From Candidatus Moraniibacteriota bacterium (GTDB lineage Bacteria; Patescibacteriota; Minisyncoccia; Moranbacterales; UBA1568), in assembly GCA_052034935.1 (NCBI GenBank), contig JBPOIB010000009.1, forward strand, positions 2,357 to 66,356: a DNA stretch of 64,000 bases, written 5' to 3'. Every line of letters begins with the position of its first letter. Position 1 is the stretch's first letter. A program made the position numbers and the translations under genes. The notes under the pieces were generated by a model that saw only the letters and a program-made list of their open reading frames with translations, was not told where the DNA came from and did not search any database. Positions 43,002 to 64,000 of this stretch are shown here, one piece after another.

Positions 43002-43574
43002 ATGATTCGAGCTCTCAAAGGAACGGTTGGTTCCATCCATCCTCAATATGCCATCATCTTTGTTGGCGGCATTGGCTACCAGGTCTATGTCTCGGCGTAT
43101 ACCTCAGGCAAGCTCGCTGGCATGAGTGGTGTGGAACTTCATATCCATACCCATGTCAGGGAGGATCAATTTAATCTCTTCGGTTTCATCACCGAGGATG
43201 AGCTTTCGATGTTTGAGCTCCTCATCTCCGTCTCAGGTGTGGGGCCGAAGGCCGCGCTCGGCATCTTGGCCATCGCGGAACCGAAGACGATTCGAACCGC
43301 CATCGTGAACAAGGATCCGTCAATCCTCACTCGAGTCTCGGGTGTCGGGAAGAAAACGGCAGAAAAAGTCATTGTCGAACTGCAGAATAAGGTTTCAGCC
43401 GCTGACGTGACGGATCAAGCCGGTGCTTTGGCCGAACAGGAATCGATTGAGGCGCTGACCGCTCTCGGCTACACGGTTTCTGAAGCGCGCGATGCGCTCA
43501 AGAGTGTCCCGATCGATATCACGAGTGTCGGGGAGCGGCTCAAGCAGGCGCTCAAAAGCCTCGGCAAGAAATAA
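43002..43574 (+). CDS. ruvA: Holliday junction DNA helicase RuvA
   Basis: MIRALKGTV...GIGYQVYVS OB-fold N-terminus, HhH motifs, C-terminal domain III. Confidence 0.9.
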   Translation: MIRALKGTVGSIHPQYAIIFVGGIGYQVYVSAYTSGKLAGMSGVELHIHTHVREDQFNLFGFITEDELSMFELLISVSGVGPKAALGILAIAEPKTIRTAIVNKDPSILTRVSGVGKKTAEKVIVELQNKVSAADVTDQAGALAEQESIEALTALGYTVSEARDALKSVPIDITSVGERLKQALKSLGKK

Positions 43575-43578
43575 CCTT

Positions 43579-44586
43579 GTGGCCTCACCATCCTTCCTCA
43601 CCACTCATGCGCCAGACGGTGGCCTCCTCCAATCGGAGGAATGGGCGAAGCTTCAGACTGCTTCGGGTCGCGAGGCGATACCTTTTCAGGGGACTGGTTT
43701 CGAAGGAGTTGCCTTTCGACAGGTGTCGCACTTCTTTGGTCGCTACCTTTTTATTCCGCGAGGACCGGTTACTGACAGTGTGAATCTCGATGCTGAGGTC
43801 TTGAAGAAAGAGCTCATGCGTATCGCTCTGGAACGTCGGACACACTGGTTGCGGGTCGAGCCTCAAACGGAGGCCTGTCTTCAGTTGCTCCGGCAGGTCT
43901 TTGGTGAAGACAAAATCGTTCCAGCACCGCGCGATATCAATCCACGCGAGATATTTTTCGTCTCGCTCGAGGGCGAGGTATTGATGTGGTTCGAACGAAT
44001 GAAGCCAAAGACGCGGTACAATGTCCGACTGGCCGAGAAGCACGGTGTGGCCATTCGTTTCTCGCGAACGACGGAAGATATTGAGGTATTCATCGACCTC
44101 ATCTATGCCACTACGAATCGCAAAGCCATCGCGCCGCATCCGAAGAAATACTACCGAAGATTTTTTACGACAATGCCAGAAGAAATGTGTACGATTGCAC
44201 TGGCCGAACATGAAGGCCAGGTAATCGCCGCAAGTCTACTCGTTTTCTTTGGCGGCACAGCGTACTATCTCCATGGTGGATCGGCGGGGATGAAACGAGA
44301 ACTGATGGCGCCGTTTCTTCTCCACTTCAAAAGCATGGAAGAAGCAAAGTGCCGTGGCTGTTCGCGTTATGACTTTGGTGGTGTTCGAATTCTTTCCAAG
44401 AAGGGACCAGCCGATTCAGATTGGGACGGCATTACCCGTTTCAAACAAGGCTTCGATCCGAAAGCCGAGACACTCCTTTTTCCGGGCACTTATGATATTA
44501 TCCTGTCGCCATTCCGCTATGCGCTCTATCGACACTTGCGGCGAGCTACCGGTGTACGACGGATTATGAGGAGCTGGTTCAAATAG
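43579..44586 (+). CDS. FemAB-family peptidoglycan interpeptide-bridge aminoacyltransferase
   Basis: FemAB/GNAT-like fold; probable GTG start at 43579 just after ruvA stop (ORF-track start 43492 overlaps ruvA). Confidence 0.6.
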   Translation: MASPSFLTTHAPDGGLLQSEEWAKLQTASGREAIPFQGTGFEGVAFRQVSHFFGRYLFIPRGPVTDSVNLDAEVLKKELMRIALERRTHWLRVEPQTEACLQLLRQVFGEDKIVPAPRDINPREIFFVSLEGEVLMWFERMKPKTRYNVRLAEKHGVAIRFSRTTEDIEVFIDLIYATTNRKAIAPHPKKYYRRFFTTMPEEMCTIALAEHEGQVIAASLLVFFGGTAYYLHGGSAGMKRELMAPFLLHFKSMEEAKCRGCSRYDFGGVRILSKKGPADSDWDGITRFKQGFDPKAETLLFPGTYDIILSPFRYALYRHLRRATGVRRIMRSWFK

Positions 44587-44601
44587 TAGTTATCTATACC
44601 T

Positions 44602-45873
44602 ATGAAAGAGATAAGGCGCTTTGTCTCACAACTCTTGCCCCAGGTCGTAAAGAACTACGCCTATCACTGGCCGCTCGCGATCACCGCTAACCTCGCTTTC
44701 GGTTTTCCGTCGCGCGGCATGACCGTTATCGGTGTGACGGGGACAAACGGGAAGACCACCACCACCAAGCTCATCGCGGTGATTCTCACCGAGAGTGGGA
44801 AGAAAACTGCCTATGCCTCGACCATCGAATATGGTATCGGCGACAAACATTGGGTGAATGCGTCTAAATTCACTACTTCTTCCGCTTGGCAGCTTCAGAA
44901 ATTCCTGAGTGAGGCGAAGCAGGCGGGCTGTACCCATGTCGTCCTCGAGACCTCATCGCACGCCCTCGACCAGCTTCGAGTCTGGGGCATATCGTACACC
45001 GTCGCTGTCATGACGAATGTCACGCGTGAGCACCTTGATTATCATGTGACCATGGAGGCGTATCGGCGAGCCAAGCGAAAGCTTTTCGACGGTGTGAAGT
45101 ATGCGGTCGTGAATACTGACATGGAACATCCAGAAGAATATTTTATTCCCGAACCAGGTGAGACTATCACCTATAGCACGAAAAATCCGGACGCTAGTAT
45201 CACGGCCAGCGAGATTGAACTTGACCTTTCCGGGACGCGTTTTCTGGCACTGGGAACATCGTTCCGTCTCCGGCTCCCGGGACTCTTCAATGTCGAAAAC
45301 GCGCTTGCAGCCATTGCGACCGGCAGGACACTCGGTATCGATACCGAGACGATGAAACGAGCGCTCGGAAATATCACCGGCATACCAGGTCGGATGGAAA
45401 TGGTCGCCAACGACCGGCAGATCGATATCCTCATCGACTATGCGGTGACGCCAGACTCTTTCGAAAAGCTCTACCACGTAGTGACACCGATGCGGATTCC
45501 GGGAACGAAAATCATCCACGTATTTGGTGCGTGCGGTGAGCGCGACCGGGGGAAACGGCCAGTGATGGGAAAGATTGCTTCTGAAAACGCTGATGTCGTT
45601 ATCCTAACGAATGAGGATCCCTACCACGAGGACCCGGAGCGGATTATCGATGAAATCGCAGCGGGTGTGGATCGGAAGAACAGCGAGCGGTATTTTCGGA
45701 TTTTCGATCGGCGTGAAGCAATCGCCAAGGCGATTTCATTGGCGGAGGCCGGGGATATTATCCTCACTACCGGTAAGGGTGCCGAAGAAACGATGGCCTT
45801 GGGCGATAAACGGGTCCCGTGGAAGGAGCAGAAAGTGATTCAGGAAATTCTCCAAGAAAAAAGCAGTGAATAA
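44602..45873 (+). CDS. murE: Mur ligase (MurE-like UDP-MurNAc-tripeptide synthetase)
   Basis: GVTGTNGKTTTT P-loop, VLETSSHAL, TNVTREHLDYH; short (423 aa) C-terminus. Confidence 0.7.
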   Translation: MKEIRRFVSQLLPQVVKNYAYHWPLAITANLAFGFPSRGMTVIGVTGTNGKTTTTKLIAVILTESGKKTAYASTIEYGIGDKHWVNASKFTTSSAWQLQKFLSEAKQAGCTHVVLETSSHALDQLRVWGISYTVAVMTNVTREHLDYHVTMEAYRRAKRKLFDGVKYAVVNTDMEHPEEYFIPEPGETITYSTKNPDASITASEIELDLSGTRFLALGTSFRLRLPGLFNVENALAAIATGRTLGIDTETMKRALGNITGIPGRMEMVANDRQIDILIDYAVTPDSFEKLYHVVTPMRIPGTKIIHVFGACGERDRGKRPVMGKIASENADVVILTNEDPYHEDPERIIDEIAAGVDRKNSERYFRIFDRREAIAKAISLAEAGDIILTTGKGAEETMALGDKRVPWKEQKVIQEILQEKSSE

Positions 45874-55287: not shown

Positions 55288-55374
55288 GGAAAGGTGGCCG
55301 AGTGGTTGAAGGCACCGCTCTCGAAAAGCGGCATACCCGAAAGGGTATCGAGAGTTCGAATCTCTCCCTTTCCG
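55288..55374 (+). tRNA. tRNA-Ser (anticodon CGA), class II with long variable arm
   Basis: acceptor GGAAAGG/CCTTTCC, D-arm GCC-GAGTGGTTGAA-GGC, anticodon loop CUCGAAA, variable stem ATACCC-GAAA-GGGTAT, T-arm GAGAG-TTCGAAT-CTCTC, discriminator G; CCA not encoded. Confidence 0.85.
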
Positions 55375-55520
55375 CAGTGAAAGAAGCAGTCGAAGAAAAG
55401 GAGAGGATACCTGACAGCCCTTTCGTGAGGTGCTTATAGGTAGCCCTAGGGAAATTTTCAAAACAGGGTATCCGAAATGGCTTGCTCGTCCGGGTACGGC
55501 TCGAAAAAAGTGCATTAGCT

Positions 55521-57477: not shown

Positions 57478-58113
57478 ATGTCTGAAAAAAATAAAGAGAT
57501 ACCAGAAACAGTCGTCGGCGATGAGAAAGAGAAAAATGCTAATCGTCCTGCTATCGCCCCTGAGACCATTAAGGAGGCTGCTGAGCCGAACGAGGCATTT
57601 TTCGGAACGGTTCTCATTGGTTGTCTCGCACTCTCGCTCATCGCCGCCGTGGGCTACTTCGGATTCTCTGGTTATCGCTACTTCAAGGCAGTGAAGAACG
57701 AGAAGGCAGTTCCGTCGATCGCTGCACTACCCGTCCTAGAAAAAAAAGACGAATCATCAGAATCGGCCGAGAGGGGAGAGGGGGAGAAGGAGACCGAAAA
57801 GCTTGCCGCTGAAGTGGCTGCGGTGGATAAGAAAACGCTTGAAGTGAAAGTGCTGAATGGTGGTGCAGCGAAAGGTGTGGCCGGGACGTATGCAGAAAAG
57901 CTCAAGAAAGAAGGTTTCGTGAAAACCACTGTCGGCAATACGTTCGGAAGCTACACCGGAGCAGTCATCTACTATGCTCAGGGGCAAGAGGCAGGACTGG
58001 CTGCCTTGAAAGAAGTGGTGCTCAAGGATTATCCCAAGCTTACAGCTAAAGAAGCAGAATCAGGGAATAAGGACACGACGGCCGCCGCTCTGACTCTTAT
58101 CCTGGGCCGATAG
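57478..58113 (+). CDS. membrane-anchored LytR_C (LytR/CpsA/Psr C-terminal) domain protein
   Basis: TM then VKVLNGGAAKGVAGTYAEKLKKEGF...VGN typical LytR_C. Confidence 0.55.
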   Translation: MSEKNKEIPETVVGDEKEKNANRPAIAPETIKEAAEPNEAFFGTVLIGCLALSLIAAVGYFGFSGYRYFKAVKNEKAVPSIAALPVLEKKDESSESAERGEGEKETEKLAAEVAAVDKKTLEVKVLNGGAAKGVAGTYAEKLKKEGFVKTTVGNTFGSYTGAVIYYAQGQEAGLAALKEVVLKDYPKLTAKEAESGNKDTTAAALTLILGR

Positions 58114-58125
58114 CCAACGTCAGCA

Positions 58126-59214
58126 ATGTTTCCTTTCGTGATGCGTTTTAGTAGACTCCTTCATCGTTTAGCAGTTTTGCCGTTCGGGGCATCCGTGCTC
58201 TTCGCGTTTCCGGCGAGCACGAATTTTCAGCTGAAGGACTACGGCTACGGTGGGGGCGGAGTAGCGAATGGCACATCGTCGAGTTACGCGATCGAGGGGA
58301 TTGCTGGAGAACAGAATGCGCCGCGGCTCGACGGTACGACGTATGATCTTGGGCCGGGACTCCAATTTACTAATCAAGCCAACGTTCCGTCAGCCCCAGC
58401 GTTTACGAATCCGGCGAATTACTACAATAAGCTCGAACTGGTGATTAGTACTGGCTCCAATCCGAGCGATACGCTTTTTGCGATCGCTATCAGTACGGAT
58501 GATTTTGTTACGACGAATTATGTTCAGAGTGATTCTACAGTCGGCCCAGTACTCGGACTGGAAGATTATCAGACTTATGCAGCTTGGGGTGGCGCGAGTG
58601 GCTTCAATATTATTGGCCTTCTCCCGAGCACAATCTATAAAGTGAAGGTAAAATCCTGGCAGGGGAAATTTACCGAAACCGGATACGGGCCAGAAAGCTC
58701 GGCTGCGACCGTCGGCGCGACGCTTACCTTTGACATCGATGTCTCGGCATCCGACACGGATACGAATGCTCCGTATGCGACGAATATCGGCGATCTTCTC
58801 GCTGGTACGGTTACGAGCAGTCCAGAGAAAATCTGGGTCGATTTCGATACCAATGGCGAAAGTGGCGGCCGCGTGTATATCGTCGCCAGTAACGCCGGAC
58901 TCCAGAGTAGTCGGGCGAGCTATACAATTAGCTCGGTCACGGGTAATTTGACTGCTCTTCCTGAGGGCTTCGGCGCTCAAGGGTCGACAGCGACCCAGTC
59001 ATCGGGCGGGCCGTTCACCGTTGCGGCGGCCTATGCGCTTGCCTCGGACAATGTAGCGATCACTGATACGACAATCCGCGAAATTTTTGCGACGAGTGGT
59101 CCAGTGACGAGTGGTCGTGGTTCATTTCTTCTCAAGGCAAAGAGTTCGGCAGTGACTCCAGCAGCCGGAGACTATGCCGAGACTCTAACCGTCATCGCCT
59201 CGGCCAGTTTTTGA
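58126..59214 (+). CDS. secreted Thr/Ser-rich surface protein with WxL-like C-terminal motif
   Basis: signal peptide; C-terminus GDYAETLTVIASASF resembles distal WxL motif (DYxxTLTW) with W->V. Confidence 0.4.
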   Translation: MFPFVMRFSRLLHRLAVLPFGASVLFAFPASTNFQLKDYGYGGGGVANGTSSSYAIEGIAGEQNAPRLDGTTYDLGPGLQFTNQANVPSAPAFTNPANYYNKLELVISTGSNPSDTLFAIAISTDDFVTTNYVQSDSTVGPVLGLEDYQTYAAWGGASGFNIIGLLPSTIYKVKVKSWQGKFTETGYGPESSAATVGATLTFDIDVSASDTDTNAPYATNIGDLLAGTVTSSPEKIWVDFDTNGESGGRVYIVASNAGLQSSRASYTISSVTGNLTALPEGFGAQGSTATQSSGGPFTVAAAYALASDNVAITDTTIREIFATSGPVTSGRGSFLLKAKSSAVTPAAGDYAETLTVIASASF

Positions 59215-59287
59215 AGAGAGCGAGTCTTGACGGAGGGATTTTTTCACATCTGGACTCATGTTAGAATAAGAAGGTAAAAGAATTCCC

Positions 59288-59316
59288 TTGACCAAGCCGT
59301 TTTTTTCGTGTATACT
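59288..59316 (+). promoter_or_regulatory. sigma70-like promoter TTGACC-17 nt-TATACT
   Basis: TTGACC 59288-59293, 17-nt spacer, TATACT 59311-59316. Confidence 0.55.
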
Positions 59317-59334
59317 GGATGCATGAAGCTGAAG

Positions 59335-59369
59335 AACGGGTGGCCCGGTGGGTGCCCGTTTCTTTTTTT
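59335..59369 (+). promoter_or_regulatory. leader hairpin + U-run between promoter and start codon (possible attenuator)
   Basis: AACGGG...CCCGTT stem with GC-rich interior followed by TCTTTTTTT; lies after -10 box and before ATG 59384. Confidence 0.35.
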
Positions 59370-59383
59370 GGGAAAATAAAAGT

Positions 59384-60433
59384 ATGTCCGTGAAAGTAAT
59401 CCGTCCAATCAGTCTCCTTAATCTCGCTGCGCTTATCGCAGTGGGAATCTTGCCGGTTGTTTTCATTACTCTGACAGCACAGGCTGGAAATCTTGAACAA
59501 GTCTATATCAGACTTGATCGGCTTAAGGCTTCGACAACCACCGGCGGCACGGTCTGTGCTCAAGCGGATACCGTCGCGACGGAAGCGGATGTACAGGTGG
59601 TCTTCCCGACCGGCTTCACAGTCAACAGTACGCCCGCCAACTGGACCGTCACAACGACCAATCTGCCTAGTGGTGCAACTGCCTGGCCAGGAATCAACAC
59701 TGCGACAGCTGTGTCCGGACAGACGGTCACTTTTCCCTCAGGTGATCTGACGGTGAGTACGCTCTACTGCTTCAATTTCTCCGGGACGAGTACGCTGACC
59801 AATGCGACGGCCGGCAATGATAAGACCGGGACGGTCACGACACGGGCCAGTGGTCCGACCACTATCGATTCCTCCGGATACGCGCTTGCTATCGTCTCCG
59901 ATGATCAGATTGTCGTGACGGCGACGGTTCCAGCAACCTTTTCTTTTGCTCTTTCAGGGAATACCGATACCTTCACCGGCAACCTTTCGACTACGACGGT
60001 TTCGACATCTGGGCGGACAGTGACCATTGCGACGAATGCCGCTTCTGGTTGGGTCGCGTGGGTGAAAAGTGCTAACGCCGCCCTGAACTCGGCCTCCACC
60101 GGTGCTTCAATCGCGACCGCCGGATCAGTTGACAACTCGCCGACCGATCTCGCCTCGGCCACGGGCTATGTCCTCGATGTGAATGTTACGACCGACTCGG
60201 CCACGGGTACGGGTACGGTTTCTCAGGCTTCAAACTACGGCGCCGAATATAATGGTACGAACGTGACATCGGGCGGTACGCTTTCGACAGCATTCCAACC
60301 AATTGCCGCCTCAGATGGTACGACCGACGGCGACGTGCTGACACTTATTGAACGCGCAAAAATCACGGCCGTTCAGGCGGCAGCGACTGATTACACGGAT
60401 ACGTTGACGGTGGTCGCAGCCGGGCGCTTCTAA
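59384..60433 (+). CDS. secreted Thr/Ser-rich surface protein with WxL-like C-terminal motif (paralogue)
   Basis: signal peptide MSVKVIRPISLLNLAALIAVG...; C-terminus TDYTDTLTVVAAGRF; ORF-track start 59348 is GTG. Confidence 0.4.
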   Translation: MSVKVIRPISLLNLAALIAVGILPVVFITLTAQAGNLEQVYIRLDRLKASTTTGGTVCAQADTVATEADVQVVFPTGFTVNSTPANWTVTTTNLPSGATAWPGINTATAVSGQTVTFPSGDLTVSTLYCFNFSGTSTLTNATAGNDKTGTVTTRASGPTTIDSSGYALAIVSDDQIVVTATVPATFSFALSGNTDTFTGNLSTTTVSTSGRTVTIATNAASGWVAWVKSANAALNSASTGASIATAGSVDNSPTDLASATGYVLDVNVTTDSATGTGTVSQASNYGAEYNGTNVTSGGTLSTAFQPIAASDGTTDGDVLTLIERAKITAVQAAATDYTDTLTVVAAGRF

Positions 60434-60451
60434 CAGCCCCGCTAAATCAGA

Positions 60452-60480
60452 GAAATAGTCCCTGAAAAGGGATTTTTTCT
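60452..60480 (+). terminator. intrinsic terminator
   Basis: TCCCT-GAAA-AGGGA hairpin followed by TTTTTTCTT. Confidence 0.6.
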
Positions 60481-60550
60481 TGGTTGGGACTTTTGCATCG
60501 CTTTCGGATATACTGGGGGAAGCTCTCGGCTTGCCTGTCTCATACTATAT

Positions 60551-61585
60551 ATGAAACTCCTCTTTTTCCTGGTTATTCTCCTCGCTCTCCCGTCGGCAGC
60601 TTTTGCTCAGGATGGATCGTTGCGTCTTGTTACCTCGCCCCTCCCGATTTCCCTTATCGCTGAGCCTGGGACGAGTGTGACCGCCGAGCTTAAGGTGAAG
60701 AACGCGGGCACGGAAGCAGAAAACCTGAAAATTGAGATTCTCAAATTCAAGGCTTATGAAGATACGGGAAAGCCGGCACTCCAGGATATCGAACCGACCG
60801 ACGAATTTGTGAAATGGGTCAGCTTTTCTGAACCGACAGTCACTGTTCTCCCGGAGGAATGGAAGACGGTTACGGCTACCTTCAATGTGCCGAAAGAGGC
60901 CTCTTTTGGCTATTACTACGCTTTTGTCTTCAGTCGTGTGAAAGACAAAGAGGATCTCGCGCCTCAGGAGACGGCAGTTGTTGGTGGCACCGCCACGCTG
61001 GTGCTCCTTGAAGCTCGCGTCCCGGATGCTAAGCGGACGATTGAGGTTACGGAGTTCTCGACGGATAAGACCGTCTATGAGTTCCTTCCGGTCCGCTTCA
61101 CGGTCTCTCTCAGGAATACGGGCAATGTCCATGTCGCACCGCGCGGTAATCTTTTCCTCAGCCAGGGTGACGATAAGGATATTGCTCTTTTGGAGATCAA
61201 TCCCGGCAAGGGGAGTATTCTCCCAGAATCGACCCGGATCTTTGATTCCGAATGGAAGGATGGCTTCCCGGTTTATGAAGAGACGGTCGAAGACGGTAAA
61301 GTCGTCCTTGATGAGCTGGGACAACAGACCCATCACCTCACTTGGAATTTTGAGAACACTTCGCATCTTCGGATGGGCAAGTACACCGCCAAGATGCTGC
61401 TTGTCTACGACGATGGAACACGCGATATCCCGATTGAGGGGGTGGTATCCTTCTGGGTGATGCCGTGGAGATTACTCGCAGCAGCAGTCTTTATCGTAAT
61501 CTTCTTTTTGATTGGTATGAAATCAAGTGTGATGAGAGTATGGCGTGTCCTGCGCTCCGAAAAAAACGAAGCTCGTCCAGCATGA
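60551..61585 (+). CDS. DUF916-like cell-surface protein with C-terminal TM anchor (CscA-like)
   Basis: signal peptide, Ig-like beta-rich ectodomain (LRLVTSPLPISLIAEPGTSVTAELKVKNAG), C-terminal TM + basic tail. Confidence 0.5.
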   Translation: MKLLFFLVILLALPSAAFAQDGSLRLVTSPLPISLIAEPGTSVTAELKVKNAGTEAENLKIEILKFKAYEDTGKPALQDIEPTDEFVKWVSFSEPTVTVLPEEWKTVTATFNVPKEASFGYYYAFVFSRVKDKEDLAPQETAVVGGTATLVLLEARVPDAKRTIEVTEFSTDKTVYEFLPVRFTVSLRNTGNVHVAPRGNLFLSQGDDKDIALLEINPGKGSILPESTRIFDSEWKDGFPVYEETVEDGKVVLDELGQQTHHLTWNFENTSHLRMGKYTAKMLLVYDDGTRDIPIEGVVSFWVMPWRLLAAAVFIVIFFLIGMKSSVMRVWRVLRSEKNEARPA

Positions 61586-62499
61586 GGGCTTTTTGGATAG
61601 TTCTTGGACTCATGCTCATTCCCCGGGCAGTGTTCGGTGCTGGTTTTAGTATCACGCCCATGCTTCAAGAGGTTTCGCTCGATGGAAACTCGGGCGCTGA
61701 ATCCAGTGTAGCAATCCGCAACGAGACTACAGTAAGCGCAACATTCGAGATTTCGACAATCGATTTCAAGGGGCTTGATCAGTCCGGTGGCATCGCCTTT
61801 CTCGGGGCGAGTGACATTGCTAATACCTATTCGCTGGCGCCCTGGCTCGTCCCAGAGGTGTCACAAGTGACGCTTTCACCCCTGGAAACCCGTGAGATTC
61901 GAGTGAAGCTTAACAATGATGAAACGCTTTCGCCGGGAGGTCATTATGGTGCGCTTGTCTTCAGACAAGTAAGTCTATCTGGTCCAGTAGACGTTCCGAA
62001 AGTCGCGCTGCAACAGCTCTTTACCTCACTTTTTTTCGTTAAAAAGATCAGCGGAGCGAAATATGGTATGGAGCTCGAGTCTTGGGGGGCAAAACGACAT
62101 ATGTTCCAGCCTTTCTCTGCTCAAAAAGTGACATTCCGTGCCACTGGCAATGTCCATATCGTGCCAAGGGGGGAAATCAGCGTTTCAGACCCATTTGGGA
62201 GACTTATCGCCAAAGCGAGTCTGAATGAGTCCTCAGCTATCGTTCTTCCGGGAATGATTCGCGAGTTTCCCATAGTGCTTCACTCTGTCCTGATAGCCTG
62301 GATTCCTGGGAAATACCGGCTCACACTCCAATACCGATCAGACGATATCTCGGTACCGCAGATCAGTGAACGTGATGAGATTTTTATCCCGTTCCGTTTC
62401 CTTCTCTCCCTGGCTGTTTTCCCACTCCTCTTTTTTACCTTTAGGCTATTTTTTCGCTTCCGTACTGCTCGAAGCACTTCACCAAGCAAATCTCTATGA
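61582..62499 (+). CDS. DUF916-like cell-surface protein paralogue with C-terminal TM
   Basis: ATGA overlap with upstream gene; signal peptide; GFSITPMLQEVSLDGNSGAESSVAIRNETTVSATFEIS; C-terminal TM. Confidence 0.45.
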   Translation: MRAFWIVLGLMLIPRAVFGAGFSITPMLQEVSLDGNSGAESSVAIRNETTVSATFEISTIDFKGLDQSGGIAFLGASDIANTYSLAPWLVPEVSQVTLSPLETREIRVKLNNDETLSPGGHYGALVFRQVSLSGPVDVPKVALQQLFTSLFFVKKISGAKYGMELESWGAKRHMFQPFSAQKVTFRATGNVHIVPRGEISVSDPFGRLIAKASLNESSAIVLPGMIREFPIVLHSVLIAWIPGKYRLTLQYRSDDISVPQISERDEIFIPFRFLLSLAVFPLLFFTFRLFFRFRTARSTSPSKSL

Positions 62500-63107
62500 A
62501 TTCTGTGGTAGAAGGTGTGAAAATAGAAGGGCAAAGAGTAAAAATCAAGAAACGAGTTCTTTGGATCGGGGCAGTGTCGCTGATTGTTTCAATCGTTATA
62601 TTTCTTAACTGGCTTTTCGGACAGAAATCGTATGGAAACATCGCGTCTTTGGATCCGGTGACCGAAACCAAGGCCAAAGAACTGGTTGGCCAGTCTGTTT
62701 ATGACGGAAAATATATCACTTTCACCTACCCGTCGGATTTCAAGCGCCAAGTCGAGAGTGAATCTGTCAAATATCCCTTGCTTGAGCGCGCATATTTCAC
62801 CCAGGGTGATATTGCCGGGAGAAAGATTGCTGTGACTATCCAGGATAATACGGGCTATAGTCTCGAAGAATATTCGAGTTATCGTATCCGGACAGCTGAA
62901 CCGAACACGTATCAGCAGAAAACTTTTGAGGAAGCCAGCCTTAGAGCGACTGTTTTCGTGAAAGAAACGAATGGACCAGAAGTAGCACTCTTTTTCGAAG
63001 AAAAGAACCGGGTTGCGAGCATTGTCCTATCGTCGTTGACGACTCCTGAGGGGCTCGAAGGGGAGGCGCGTACACTTCTCCGGTCATTTCGTTGGAAGAA
63101 TGAATAG
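62496..63107 (+). CDS. N-terminally anchored hypothetical surface-locus protein
   Basis: ATGA overlap with upstream gene; single N-terminal TM; 203 aa. Confidence 0.35.
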   Translation: MNSVVEGVKIEGQRVKIKKRVLWIGAVSLIVSIVIFLNWLFGQKSYGNIASLDPVTETKAKELVGQSVYDGKYITFTYPSDFKRQVESESVKYPLLERAYFTQGDIAGRKIAVTIQDNTGYSLEEYSSYRIRTAEPNTYQQKTFEEASLRATVFVKETNGPEVALFFEEKNRVASIVLSSLTTPEGLEGEARTLLRSFRWKNE

Positions 63108-63258: not shown

Positions 63259-64000
63259 TATGTCGTCACCCCGAAAACACAATCTAACATCAAAATACAG
63301 GTTATTTCTGTCCCGGCGATCCGTCATCGGATTTTTCAGTTTTTCTCTCTGTATTCTTTCAGTTTTTTCTCTCGGTAGCCCGGCTGATGCGGCGACTGGT
63401 ATCAATGAGCAGATTAGTTTCCAGGGAAAGGTAGTCAATACCGACGGAACCAATGTCGCCAATGGGAGTTATAATTTTCTTTTTTGTCTCTACACCACTG
63501 CTAGTCCGGCGACACCTTGTACTGGAGTTGCGGACAATGACGCTGTTTGGCGCGAATCAAAGAGTGTGACGGTGACTGATGGTATTTTCCAGTCGAATCT
63601 CGGCGATACCACTACCCTCCCAGGATCGGTGGATTTCAATACCGACAATATTTACCTTGGCATCAATTTTAATAGTGATGGTCAGATGACACCATTAGTA
63701 CGATTCACTGCGGCGCCGTATGCCCTGAATGCCGCCAAGGTGGGTGGACTCACCGTGACTGACACGACCGGTACGCTGACGATTCCGAATAGCGAAACGA
63801 TTTCTTTTGGCGGATCATTTTCGACCACAGCCTCTAACGATATTGCTTTGACGACCTCGGGCGCGACGACACTGACATTACCCACGACCGGTACGCTCGC
63901 TACCTTAGCTGGGACAGAGGTGTTGACGAATAAAACCATTGGCTCGACGGGGCTGGTATTTTCTGGCGCAACGACCGACATTACCACCACTTCGGGTGAA
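63259..64000 (+). CDS. partial (5' portion) large secreted repetitive surface protein; continues beyond window
   Basis: ATG 63259, open frame to window end (not in ORF track because no stop); signal peptide then Thr/Gly-rich repeats (TLTIP, TLTLP, GTLATLAG). Confidence 0.4.

Follow-up and report, generated by a model that had tools for sequence, protein, structure and literature searches.

A candidate surface-protein display locus of Candidatus Moranbacteria with membrane proteins remotely homologous to WxLIP

A locus of five genes, located on the + strand at positions 58126-63107 of a 64,000-nucleotide stretch (positions 2,357 to 66,356 of contig JBPOIB010000009.1, assembly GCA_052034935.1; termed the window hereafter) from a Candidatus Moraniibacteriota bacterium, is described here as what is probably, on balance, the core of a surface-protein display system of Candidatus Moranbacteria (Patescibacteria, also known as the Candidate Phyla Radiation, CPR) and a remote relative of the WxL/WxLIP (Csc) system of Firmicutes. 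Two secreted proteins, g1 and g2, which share a C-terminal domain (CTD), are followed by g3 and g4, type-I membrane proteins that are homologous to WxLIP (DUF916-DUF3324-transmembrane (TM) helix) at the level of remote homology, and by the short membrane protein g5; a giant secreted protein, g6, begins downstream. Judged from the sequences, the anchor component is best called homologous to WxLIP, and the cargo domain novel or diverged past recognition. A preliminary description of this DNA had delineated the same five genes, whose coordinates, layouts and ATGA overlaps agree with the present analysis, and had read them as a WxL-like/DUF916-like cell-surface locus.

The membrane proteins g3 and g4 as remote homologues of WxLIP

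The gene g3 (60551..61585, +) encodes a protein of 344 amino acids (aa) constructed from a signal peptide, two Ig-like beta-sandwich domains, a TM helix (residues 306-339) and a basic tail, and its paralogue g4 (61582..62499, +) encodes 305 aa of the same layout. The signal peptide and single C-terminal TM helix of both were confirmed by hydropathy and, for g3, by AlphaFold2, while the paralogy that had been proposed for the pair was evident from BLASTP (E=3e-14) and from the comparison of family profiles (P=1e-29). Such a size and layout fit the published definition of WxLIP (PMC10599100). The WxLIP proteins of Lactobacillales and Bacillales (EfmWxLIP1; PDB 9i1y, 9i25) share with g3 and g4 the signal peptide, the tandem Ig-like domains, the C-terminal TM helix and the basic tail, and their length of 337-365 aa compares with 305-344 aa here. 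As in WxLIP loci, the genes immediately preceding g3 and g4 encode two secreted proteins with a C-terminal domain in common. The differences are that g3/g4 proteins occur in two to three paralogues per locus, that the host is a CPR bacterium rather than a Firmicute, and that the next overlapping gene encodes the N-anchored g5 instead of a sortase.

The homology was established by profile comparison. Reference Firmicute WxL clusters were taken from metagenomes via the published WxLIP motif NQIDKxxxYFDLK and verified with Pfam (PF06030 and PF11797 at 126-166 bits, PF13731 at 244 bits). When an alignment of 42 g4-family sequences from GTDB loci (A5) was compared with one of 12 verified WxLIPs (A6), hhalign returned a probability of 98% and E=2e-13. 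The 219 aligned columns take in the PGBD and the greater part of the HBD and exclude the TM helix. The helix was left out because a match between g5 and reversed WxLIP (P=8e-5, 22 columns) proved to be a TM-helix artefact, and only long alignments without the helix were relied on. A scripted hhalign run of the g4 family against WxLIP gave P=1.3e-12, and its reversed control P=0.02; the g3 family reached P=1.4e-5 with 66 sequences and 7e-4 with a narrower alignment (A1). The alignments extend across template columns ~160-271/306, corresponding to the HBD, and AlphaFold2 gives g3 a second beta-sandwich.

Pfam searches point in the same direction. PF06030 (WxLIP_PGBD, formerly DUF916) is the top family in 32 of the 42 g4 homologues, with a best E of 4.8e-6 near the gathering score, and matches 12 of 43 g3-family homologues weakly; g3 of the window itself scores 13.6 bits, below threshold, and g4 of the window has no Pfam match. 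The sole above-threshold Pfam match among the genes of the locus is the generic fn3_5 on g3 (33 bits), and NCBIfam has no match for any of g1-g5. In addition, the AlphaFold2 model of g3, with a predicted local distance difference test (pLDDT) score of 84, consists of two beta-sandwich domains and the TM helix, and its best Foldseek match in the PDB is 9i25_C, titled 'WxLIP from Enterococcus faecium locus A bound to long WxL', followed closely by 9i1y. The suggestion that g3 and g4 are DUF916/CscA-like is upheld by profiles and family matches and, for g3, by structure comparison.

A loop of g3 deserves separate mention. Residues ~130-148 (60938..60994, +) form an acidic segment of low confidence, with pLDDT blocks of 53-61, which runs into a conserved strand, and yet T141, G145, G146 and A148 are invariant. 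The segment follows the last strand of the first domain and aligns with the long acidic loop and conserved strand that WxLIP carries at the same place. According to PMC10599100, WxLIP contributes a long hairpin loop to WxL as an inserted strand, and by analogy with that report the g3 loop is a candidate partner-binding (donor) strand.

A strictly C-terminal domain shared by g1 and g2

The gene g1 (58126..59214, +) encodes a secreted protein of 362 aa with a signal-peptide-like N-terminus, and g2 (59384..60433, +) one of 349 aa with a signal peptide closing in AQA; the start of g2 was set at the ATG at 59384 instead of the GTG at 59348, because homologues begin there. Both proteins are acidic, with Ser plus Thr contents of 22% (g1) and 28% (g2). 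As had been noted before, they are paralogous Ser/Thr-rich proteins (BLASTP E=7e-6), with the similarity confined to the last ~150-170 residues. This shared part is the CTD, a beta-rich family of ~165 residues without earlier description, which comprises residues ~197-362 of g1 (58714..59211, +; pLDDT mostly 80-94; terminating in DYAETLTVIASASF) and residues ~170-349 of g2 (59891..60430, +; terminating in DYTDTLTVVAAGRF). The C-terminus reads ...AAGDYAETLTVIASASF / ...GDYAETLTVIASASF in g1 and ...ATDYTDTLTVVAAGRF / ...TDYTDTLTVVAAGRF in g2. The closing motif, DY-x-[DE]-T-L-T-V-x-A-x-x-x-[FY]-COOH, is invariant or near-invariant in both families, a degree of conservation far from chance, so that the DYxxTLTVxAxxxF motif pointed out in the preliminary description is real.

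A search with the CTD profile against 1.84 billion representative proteins retrieved at least 850 members at E<=1e-3, 492 of them at E<=1e-10. In all 150 listed representatives the CTD closes the protein at its last residue with DY-[TSA]-[DE]-x-[LI]-T-...-[FY]-COOH; 94 of these proteins measure 260-420 aa, the range of g1 and g2, and 17 exceed 420 aa. Seven of these 17 were scanned with Pfam, and recognisable domains were found in six, the passengers being a subtilase with CHB_HEX_C, five TIG, TIG together with NHL propellers, LamG_3/DUF2341, Big_5, and weak FN3/DUF7948. Two large CTD proteins, including the subtilase type, are encoded alone amid housekeeping genes, and two others sit inside g3/g4-like clusters: L110 holds a LamG-CTD protein, a CTD protein, two g3-like genes and one g4-like gene, and L108 is similar. 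One named member belongs to Candidatus Berkelbacteria. Domains for surface retention or sorting typically show this pattern of a strictly C-terminal module preceded by interchangeable passengers.

No Pfam or NCBIfam model covers the CTD in the window proteins, nor does Pfam do so in the large members, and PDB sequence searches with g1, g3, g4, the CTD profiles, g5 and g6 returned nothing meaningful; for the CTD this PDB result is uninformative, because a small-WxL profile likewise matches no PDB chain. The alternating hydrophobic C-terminus ending in Phe also brought to mind an outer-membrane beta-signal. These bacteria are monoderm and have no outer membrane, and this candidate was rejected in view of the monoderm host and its Gram-positive-type peptidoglycan genes.

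Upstream of the CTD, g1 carries a conserved region (residues ~28-90) and an FN3-like domain (~95-195). The former, which is the mature N-terminus (58207-58395; PASTNYQLKDFGYGGGG...SSSNYAIEGIAGEQ...), holds many invariant residues and ranks among the best-conserved parts of g1. Despite this conservation its AlphaFold2 pLDDT is below 50, and the model suggests that it may fold solely against a partner or a neighbouring subunit. The N-terminal domain of g2 contains the only two cysteines of that protein (residues 58 and 129), invariant across 38 homologues, which probably form a disulfide in the secreted protein. The identity of g1 is 62-99% among its 120 best matches, and that of g2, the most conserved gene of the locus, 70-99% among the best 120 of 2007 matches.

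The whole locus had been taken for a tight operon. This holds for g3-g4-g5 only, where the ATGA overlaps read from the sequence (GCATGAGG for g3/g4 and CTATGAAT for g4/g5) mark the three genes as translationally coupled; g1 and g2 stand apart, with gaps of 169 bp (g1/g2) and 117 bp (g2/g3). A candidate sigma-70-like promoter, TTGACC-17-TATACT (59288..59316, +), proposed on its consensus match only, precedes g2, and a terminator-like hairpin (60457-60474) with a T-run (60457..60482, +) follows it. Flanked in this way and the best conserved gene of the locus, g2 may encode a surface protein made in very large amounts, perhaps as part of a lattice or of an S-layer-like structure.

Weighing a WxL-related display system against its alternatives

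In the display system that we consider probable, the CTD would be a surface-retention module in the role that WxL has in Firmicutes. After Sec export it would dock non-covalently on the membrane-anchored g3 and g4, probably by beta-strand addition, as the WxLIP loop does in solved or predicted WxLIP-WxL complexes, with the g3 loop at ~130-148 as its presumed equivalent. Within the complex, the cargo or scaffold that is abundant and constitutively present would be formed by g1 and g2, as suggested by their strong conservation and by the putative promoter and terminator that g2 has to itself. Dispersed enzymes and adhesin-like proteins with a CTD tail would use the same anchors.

The architectural analogy with the WxL domain (CscB/CscC, Lwp/Swp, ElrA) is close. 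The CTD, too, is always C-terminal, beta-rich and about 160-190 residues long, occurs in two copies upstream of a WxLIP-type gene, and has large versions with N-terminal passengers. Its final strand, Y-x-x-T-L-T-[W/V]-x-[L/A], and a G-W/G-G turn ~100 residues earlier are similarly placed. The differences lie in the end, which is an aromatic residue in the CTD versus ...D-x-P in WxL, and in the absence of the distal Trp and of D-x-R. The earlier statement that the locus mirrors Csc/WxL loci stands for the order of the genes (two secreted proteins with a shared CTD, then proteins of signal peptide-Ig-Ig-TM layout) and for the large multidomain CTD proteins embedded in related clusters, and is not supported by sequence for the identity of the WxL proteins. 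A WxL gene cluster in the sense of Hassan & Williamson comprises at least one WxLIP and at least two WxL within 4 genes; here WxLIP homologues are present, the pair of secreted proteins beside them gives no WxL match, and the arrangement is otherwise alike.

Several results weigh against the proposed display system. On the side of the membrane proteins, the best-conserved WxLIP motif, NQIDKxxxYFDLK, is missing from g3 and g4, where profile alignments place a gap of ~10 residues; PF11797 (DUF3324) has no match at E<=1 in g3 or g4 of the window and is not among the 25 families most often matched by the 43 g3 or 42 g4 homologues; and in Foldseek CfaA, CsuC, DraB, RbmA and CEP192 score almost like WxLIP against the g3 model. 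On the side of the secreted proteins, PF13731 is unmatched in g1 and g2 of the window and in 43 g1 homologues, the scan having covered g1 and not g2 homologues; hhalign finds nothing significant between the joint g1/g2 CTD alignment (A4) and one of genuine small WxL proteins (A7; P=0.39); and HMMER comparison of CTD and WxL stays at or below 5.6 bits in both directions. The role of g3 and g4 as partners of the CTD is one that we infer from gene neighbourhood and analogy, since the CTD has no significant similarity to WxL. Moreover, the high conservation of g1 and g2 fits a polymer or lattice subunit equally with cargo, and a supposed class of small, domain-only CTD proteins was dropped, most matches below 260 aa having the look of open reading frame (ORF) fragments.

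Further hhalign comparisons of the CTD remained negative: mixed, large-only or actinobacterial WxL sets gave P=0.02-0.37, the match to WxL lost strength instead of gaining it when the CTD profile was widened to 119 representatives (P=0.12), and a bridge through actinobacterial intermediates reached only P=0.035-0.09. These negatives are informative, because identical tests recover known WxL relatives: large versus small WxL gave P=2e-13, and Firmicute WxL versus Trp-less actinobacterial WxL-like domains P=1.2e-8. Of the domains for which the preliminary description had proposed profile searches, DUF916 was recovered, and the labelling of g1 and g2 as WxL-like found no support in the PF13731, hhalign and HMMER comparisons. 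As judged from these searches, the CTD is not demonstrably WxL, and the likeness of the motifs is a lead and not a shown homology.

That lead feeds the idea that the locus is a true but extremely diverged WxL cluster, in which a WxL CTD with its Trp replaced binds peptidoglycan directly and is stabilised by g3 and g4, a possibility that we take seriously and nonetheless lean away from. It overlaps the reading favoured here and differs only on homology and on peptidoglycan binding. The relaxed hhalign alignment of CTD and WxL is collinear end to end, pairing TNxxSG[GW] with DxRGxxxGWxL and DYTxTLTV with YxTTLTWxL, and forward P values always lie below those of the reversed controls (0.02-0.09 vs 0.25-0.9). 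The distal motif of g1 and g2 reads T-V-[IV]-A and lacks Trp; proximally, G-G-R-V is found in g1, while g2 keeps an invariant G-W (G-W-V-A after T-N-A-A-S). The pair of Trp-x-Leu motifs that marks WxL, with a D-x-R-G-T-x-A-G turn ahead of the first, is not found, the D/R pair is absent, and the turn that leads from the D/T residue to the Trp has 2-3 residues fewer, which, with the insignificant comparisons above, speaks against such descent. When the complete g1 model was compared with the PDB by Foldseek, the listed matches were of FN3 or Ig type and fell on the middle domain. The long WxL of 9i25 is missing from these 50 entries, a weak argument given that FN3 dominates the list. In favour of the diverged cluster, g3 and g4 are homologues of WxLIP, the genes of which normally adjoin two WxL genes, and a parallel is found in Actinobacteria.

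The g4 hidden Markov model (HMM) of the CPR family matches a DUF916-annotated protein of a Streptomyces plasmid at 54.8 bits, and WxL-like domains lacking the distal Trp were observed on actinobacterial plasmids of Streptomyces, Arthrobacter, Embleya, Cellulosimicrobium and Clavibacter (loci L002 4197-6819; L003 5190-7495; L111; L112 4857-10012; L113 2433-6581). These domains end in GDYAGTLTLTLL, DYSSTITLSLFE or DYEATITSSVS, along the pattern DY-x-x-T-[LI]-T-[LS]-x-[LV], and yet WxL profiles recognise them, which sets them apart from the CTD. Their genes adjoin DUF916 genes in four annotated loci (the Embleya stretch, L111, is unannotated), and, as in the Moranbacteria, a DUF916 gene of signal peptide-Ig-Ig-TM layout stands beside small and large secreted proteins. 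The actinobacterial cargo consists of glycan-degrading proteins with GH43, RICIN and LamG domains, and genes for glycan degradation were also found in three of the clusters. The Streptomyces WxL-like domain forms the C-terminus of a 535-aa ORF that contains a RICIN domain, looks GH43-like by eye and is absent from the PLSDB gene table; the Cellulosimicrobium and Clavibacter clusters have a small WxL-like protein with LamG and GH43 genes next to it, and the two of those large proteins that were checked carry no motif. On the Deinococcus psychrotolerans plasmid (L004 4865-10611) a g3-like tandem-Ig protein, to which the g3 HMM gives 41 bits, has as its neighbours two small secreted proteins and one of 1058 aa containing SdrD_B, a layout resembling the Moranbacteria locus.

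The Foldseek likeness of g3 to PapD-like chaperones raises a different thought, namely that g1 and g2 are donor-strand subunits of a fibre, a pilus-like structure or a surface lattice, with g3 and g4 as membrane-tethered PapD-like chaperones or platforms and g6 as tip or adhesin. CfaA, CsuC and DraB share with g3 the two Ig-like domains, at E about 1e-9 to 1e-7, and their donor-strand mechanism is conceptually similar. The closing motif of the CTD, in which hydrophobic residues alternate along a strand up to an aromatic end, is also reminiscent of the final strand in pilins of the chaperone-usher type. The identity of g1 and g2 (60-99%) is far above that usual for exposed cargo, the promoter-like and terminator-like signals of g2 suggest high expression, residues 28-90 of g1 are conserved and not confidently folded as a monomer, as a donor extension would be, and g6 is a conserved neighbour. 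We nevertheless regard a fibre as unlikely. g3 and g4 differ from PapD-like chaperones in being anchored to the membrane by a C-terminal helix; no PapD Pfam match at E<=1 was obtained in the window or in the g3/g4 homologues, no usher-like gene lies in the locus, and monoderms such as these have neither usher nor outer membrane. Besides, the CTD also sits on enzymes, for example on a subtilase encoded alone, which fits an anchor better than a polymer subunit, and g6 has no CTD.

It might finally be argued that the genes are mere neighbours without physical coupling, in which case g3 and g4 would be unspecialised membrane proteins with Ig folds and the CTD a structural domain like many others; the sole above-threshold Pfam match is, after all, the generic fn3_5, and Foldseek separates tandem-Ig proteins poorly. 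Synteny and the specific profile match make this very improbable. In a survey of one genome per GTDB species, which found 73 loci, the order g1-g2(x1-2)-g3(x1-2)-g4-g5-g6 is kept in about 45 species-level genomes of Moranbacteria, the very comparison for which the preliminary description had called. Both g1 and g2 lie upstream of g3 in 44 of the 48 loci with enough upstream sequence, and among the 45 with enough downstream sequence g3 is followed by g4 in 42, by g5 in 33 and by g6 in 40. The putative translational coupling of g3-g4-g5, the two-domain extent of the WxLIP match at E=2e-13, and the C-terminal position of the CTD behind unrelated passengers in every listed protein argue likewise for a functional unit. 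Of the two features on which the preliminary description had staked its reading, similarity to DUF916 is present and the C-terminal motif is conserved.

Genomic setting, host range and significance

Several neighbouring features complete the picture of the locus. A gene for a protein with an N-terminal TM segment and a LytR_C domain (57478..58113, +; Pfam PF13399 at 3.2e-9) ends 12 bp before g1; given the TM segment and the domain, its product is predicted to be cell-envelope-related. A homologue lies upstream of g1 in about 20 related loci, where MscL is also often found. The protein g5 (62496..63107, +) has 203 aa, a single N-terminal TM segment and no Cys. In enterococcal-type WxL clusters, a sortase gene overlaps or directly follows the WxLIP gene (L005 5771-6580; L011 5349-6098), which is the position of g5, and a sortase identity of g5 was considered by this analogy and rejected for lack of a cysteine. 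The enterococcal reference loci of this Csc/sortase-linked kind carry, besides the sortase, an LPXTG protein, whereas no LPXTG motif was found in g1-g5, in line with the earlier remark that such a component is missing.

The gene g6 starts at 63260 and is truncated by the end of the window, which contains its first 246 codons (63260..64000, +). Its relatives measure 640 to more than 2100 aa, with a conserved N-terminal region and highly variable C-termini (for example L001 11800-17035), and have no Pfam domain, no PDB relative and no CTD. A role of g6 as cargo of the 'large WxL' type was discarded, because the C-termini are variable and the motif is absent. Elsewhere in the window, a tRNA-Ser(CGA) at 55288-55375 is the sole RNA gene found by ARAGORN and Rfam, and FemAB-family and Mur-ligase genes occupy 43492-45873. 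Going by gene content, the latter indicate a peptidoglycan with an interpeptide bridge in this CPR bacterium and are compatible with a monoderm envelope.

Most of the 73 surveyed loci come from Moranbacteria, and a few carry Berkel-, Sacchari-, Shapiro- or Woesebacteria labels. The nearest named homologues of g1, g2 and g3 belong almost all to metagenome-assembled genomes (MAGs) of Candidatus Moranbacteria/Moraniibacteriota, and all are named 'hypothetical protein'. Such loci were also observed in many third-party annotation (TPA) MAG records titled 'uncultured Bdellovibrionales', 'Gammaproteobacteria' or 'Pseudomonadales' (L034-L095), with the same gene order as the named Moranbacteria loci and protein identities of 49-82%; the taxonomic titles of these records look mislabelled. 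The locus is among the most conserved envelope gene sets of Moranbacteria.

WxL and WxLIP have been placed almost wholly in Lactobacillales and Bacillales (PMC10599100, PMC9772566). A literature search found no prior description of WxL in Patescibacteria, nor of donor-strand systems in monoderms. The present results extend the range of the WxLIP part to Actinobacteria and CPR, and probably to Deinococcus (one match of the g3 profile), and show that the Trp residues from which WxL takes its name are dispensable in the actinobacterial relatives.

To our knowledge, almost nothing is known of how CPR/Patescibacteria build their cell surface, and attachment to host cells is central to the CPR lifestyle. 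We therefore put forward, tentatively and with less confidence than the display locus itself, that CPR may possess a general, sortase-independent way of holding proteins at the surface. The CTD would be captured by WxLIP-like tandem-Ig proteins via beta-strand complementation, a monoderm counterpart of donor-strand chaperone chemistry. Such a system would stand in evolutionary continuity with the WxL systems of both Firmicutes and Actinobacteria, and it would serve an abundant, conserved g1/g2 scaffold, possibly a lattice or fibre, along with dispersed enzymes and adhesins that perhaps mediate host attachment. The link between g3/g4 and WxLIP, for which solved structures exist, offers a concrete and testable mechanism. 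Meanwhile, the CTD would serve as a sequence tag by which likely surface-displayed proteins, including proteases, adhesin-like repeats and lectin-like domains, could be listed from CPR metagenomes.

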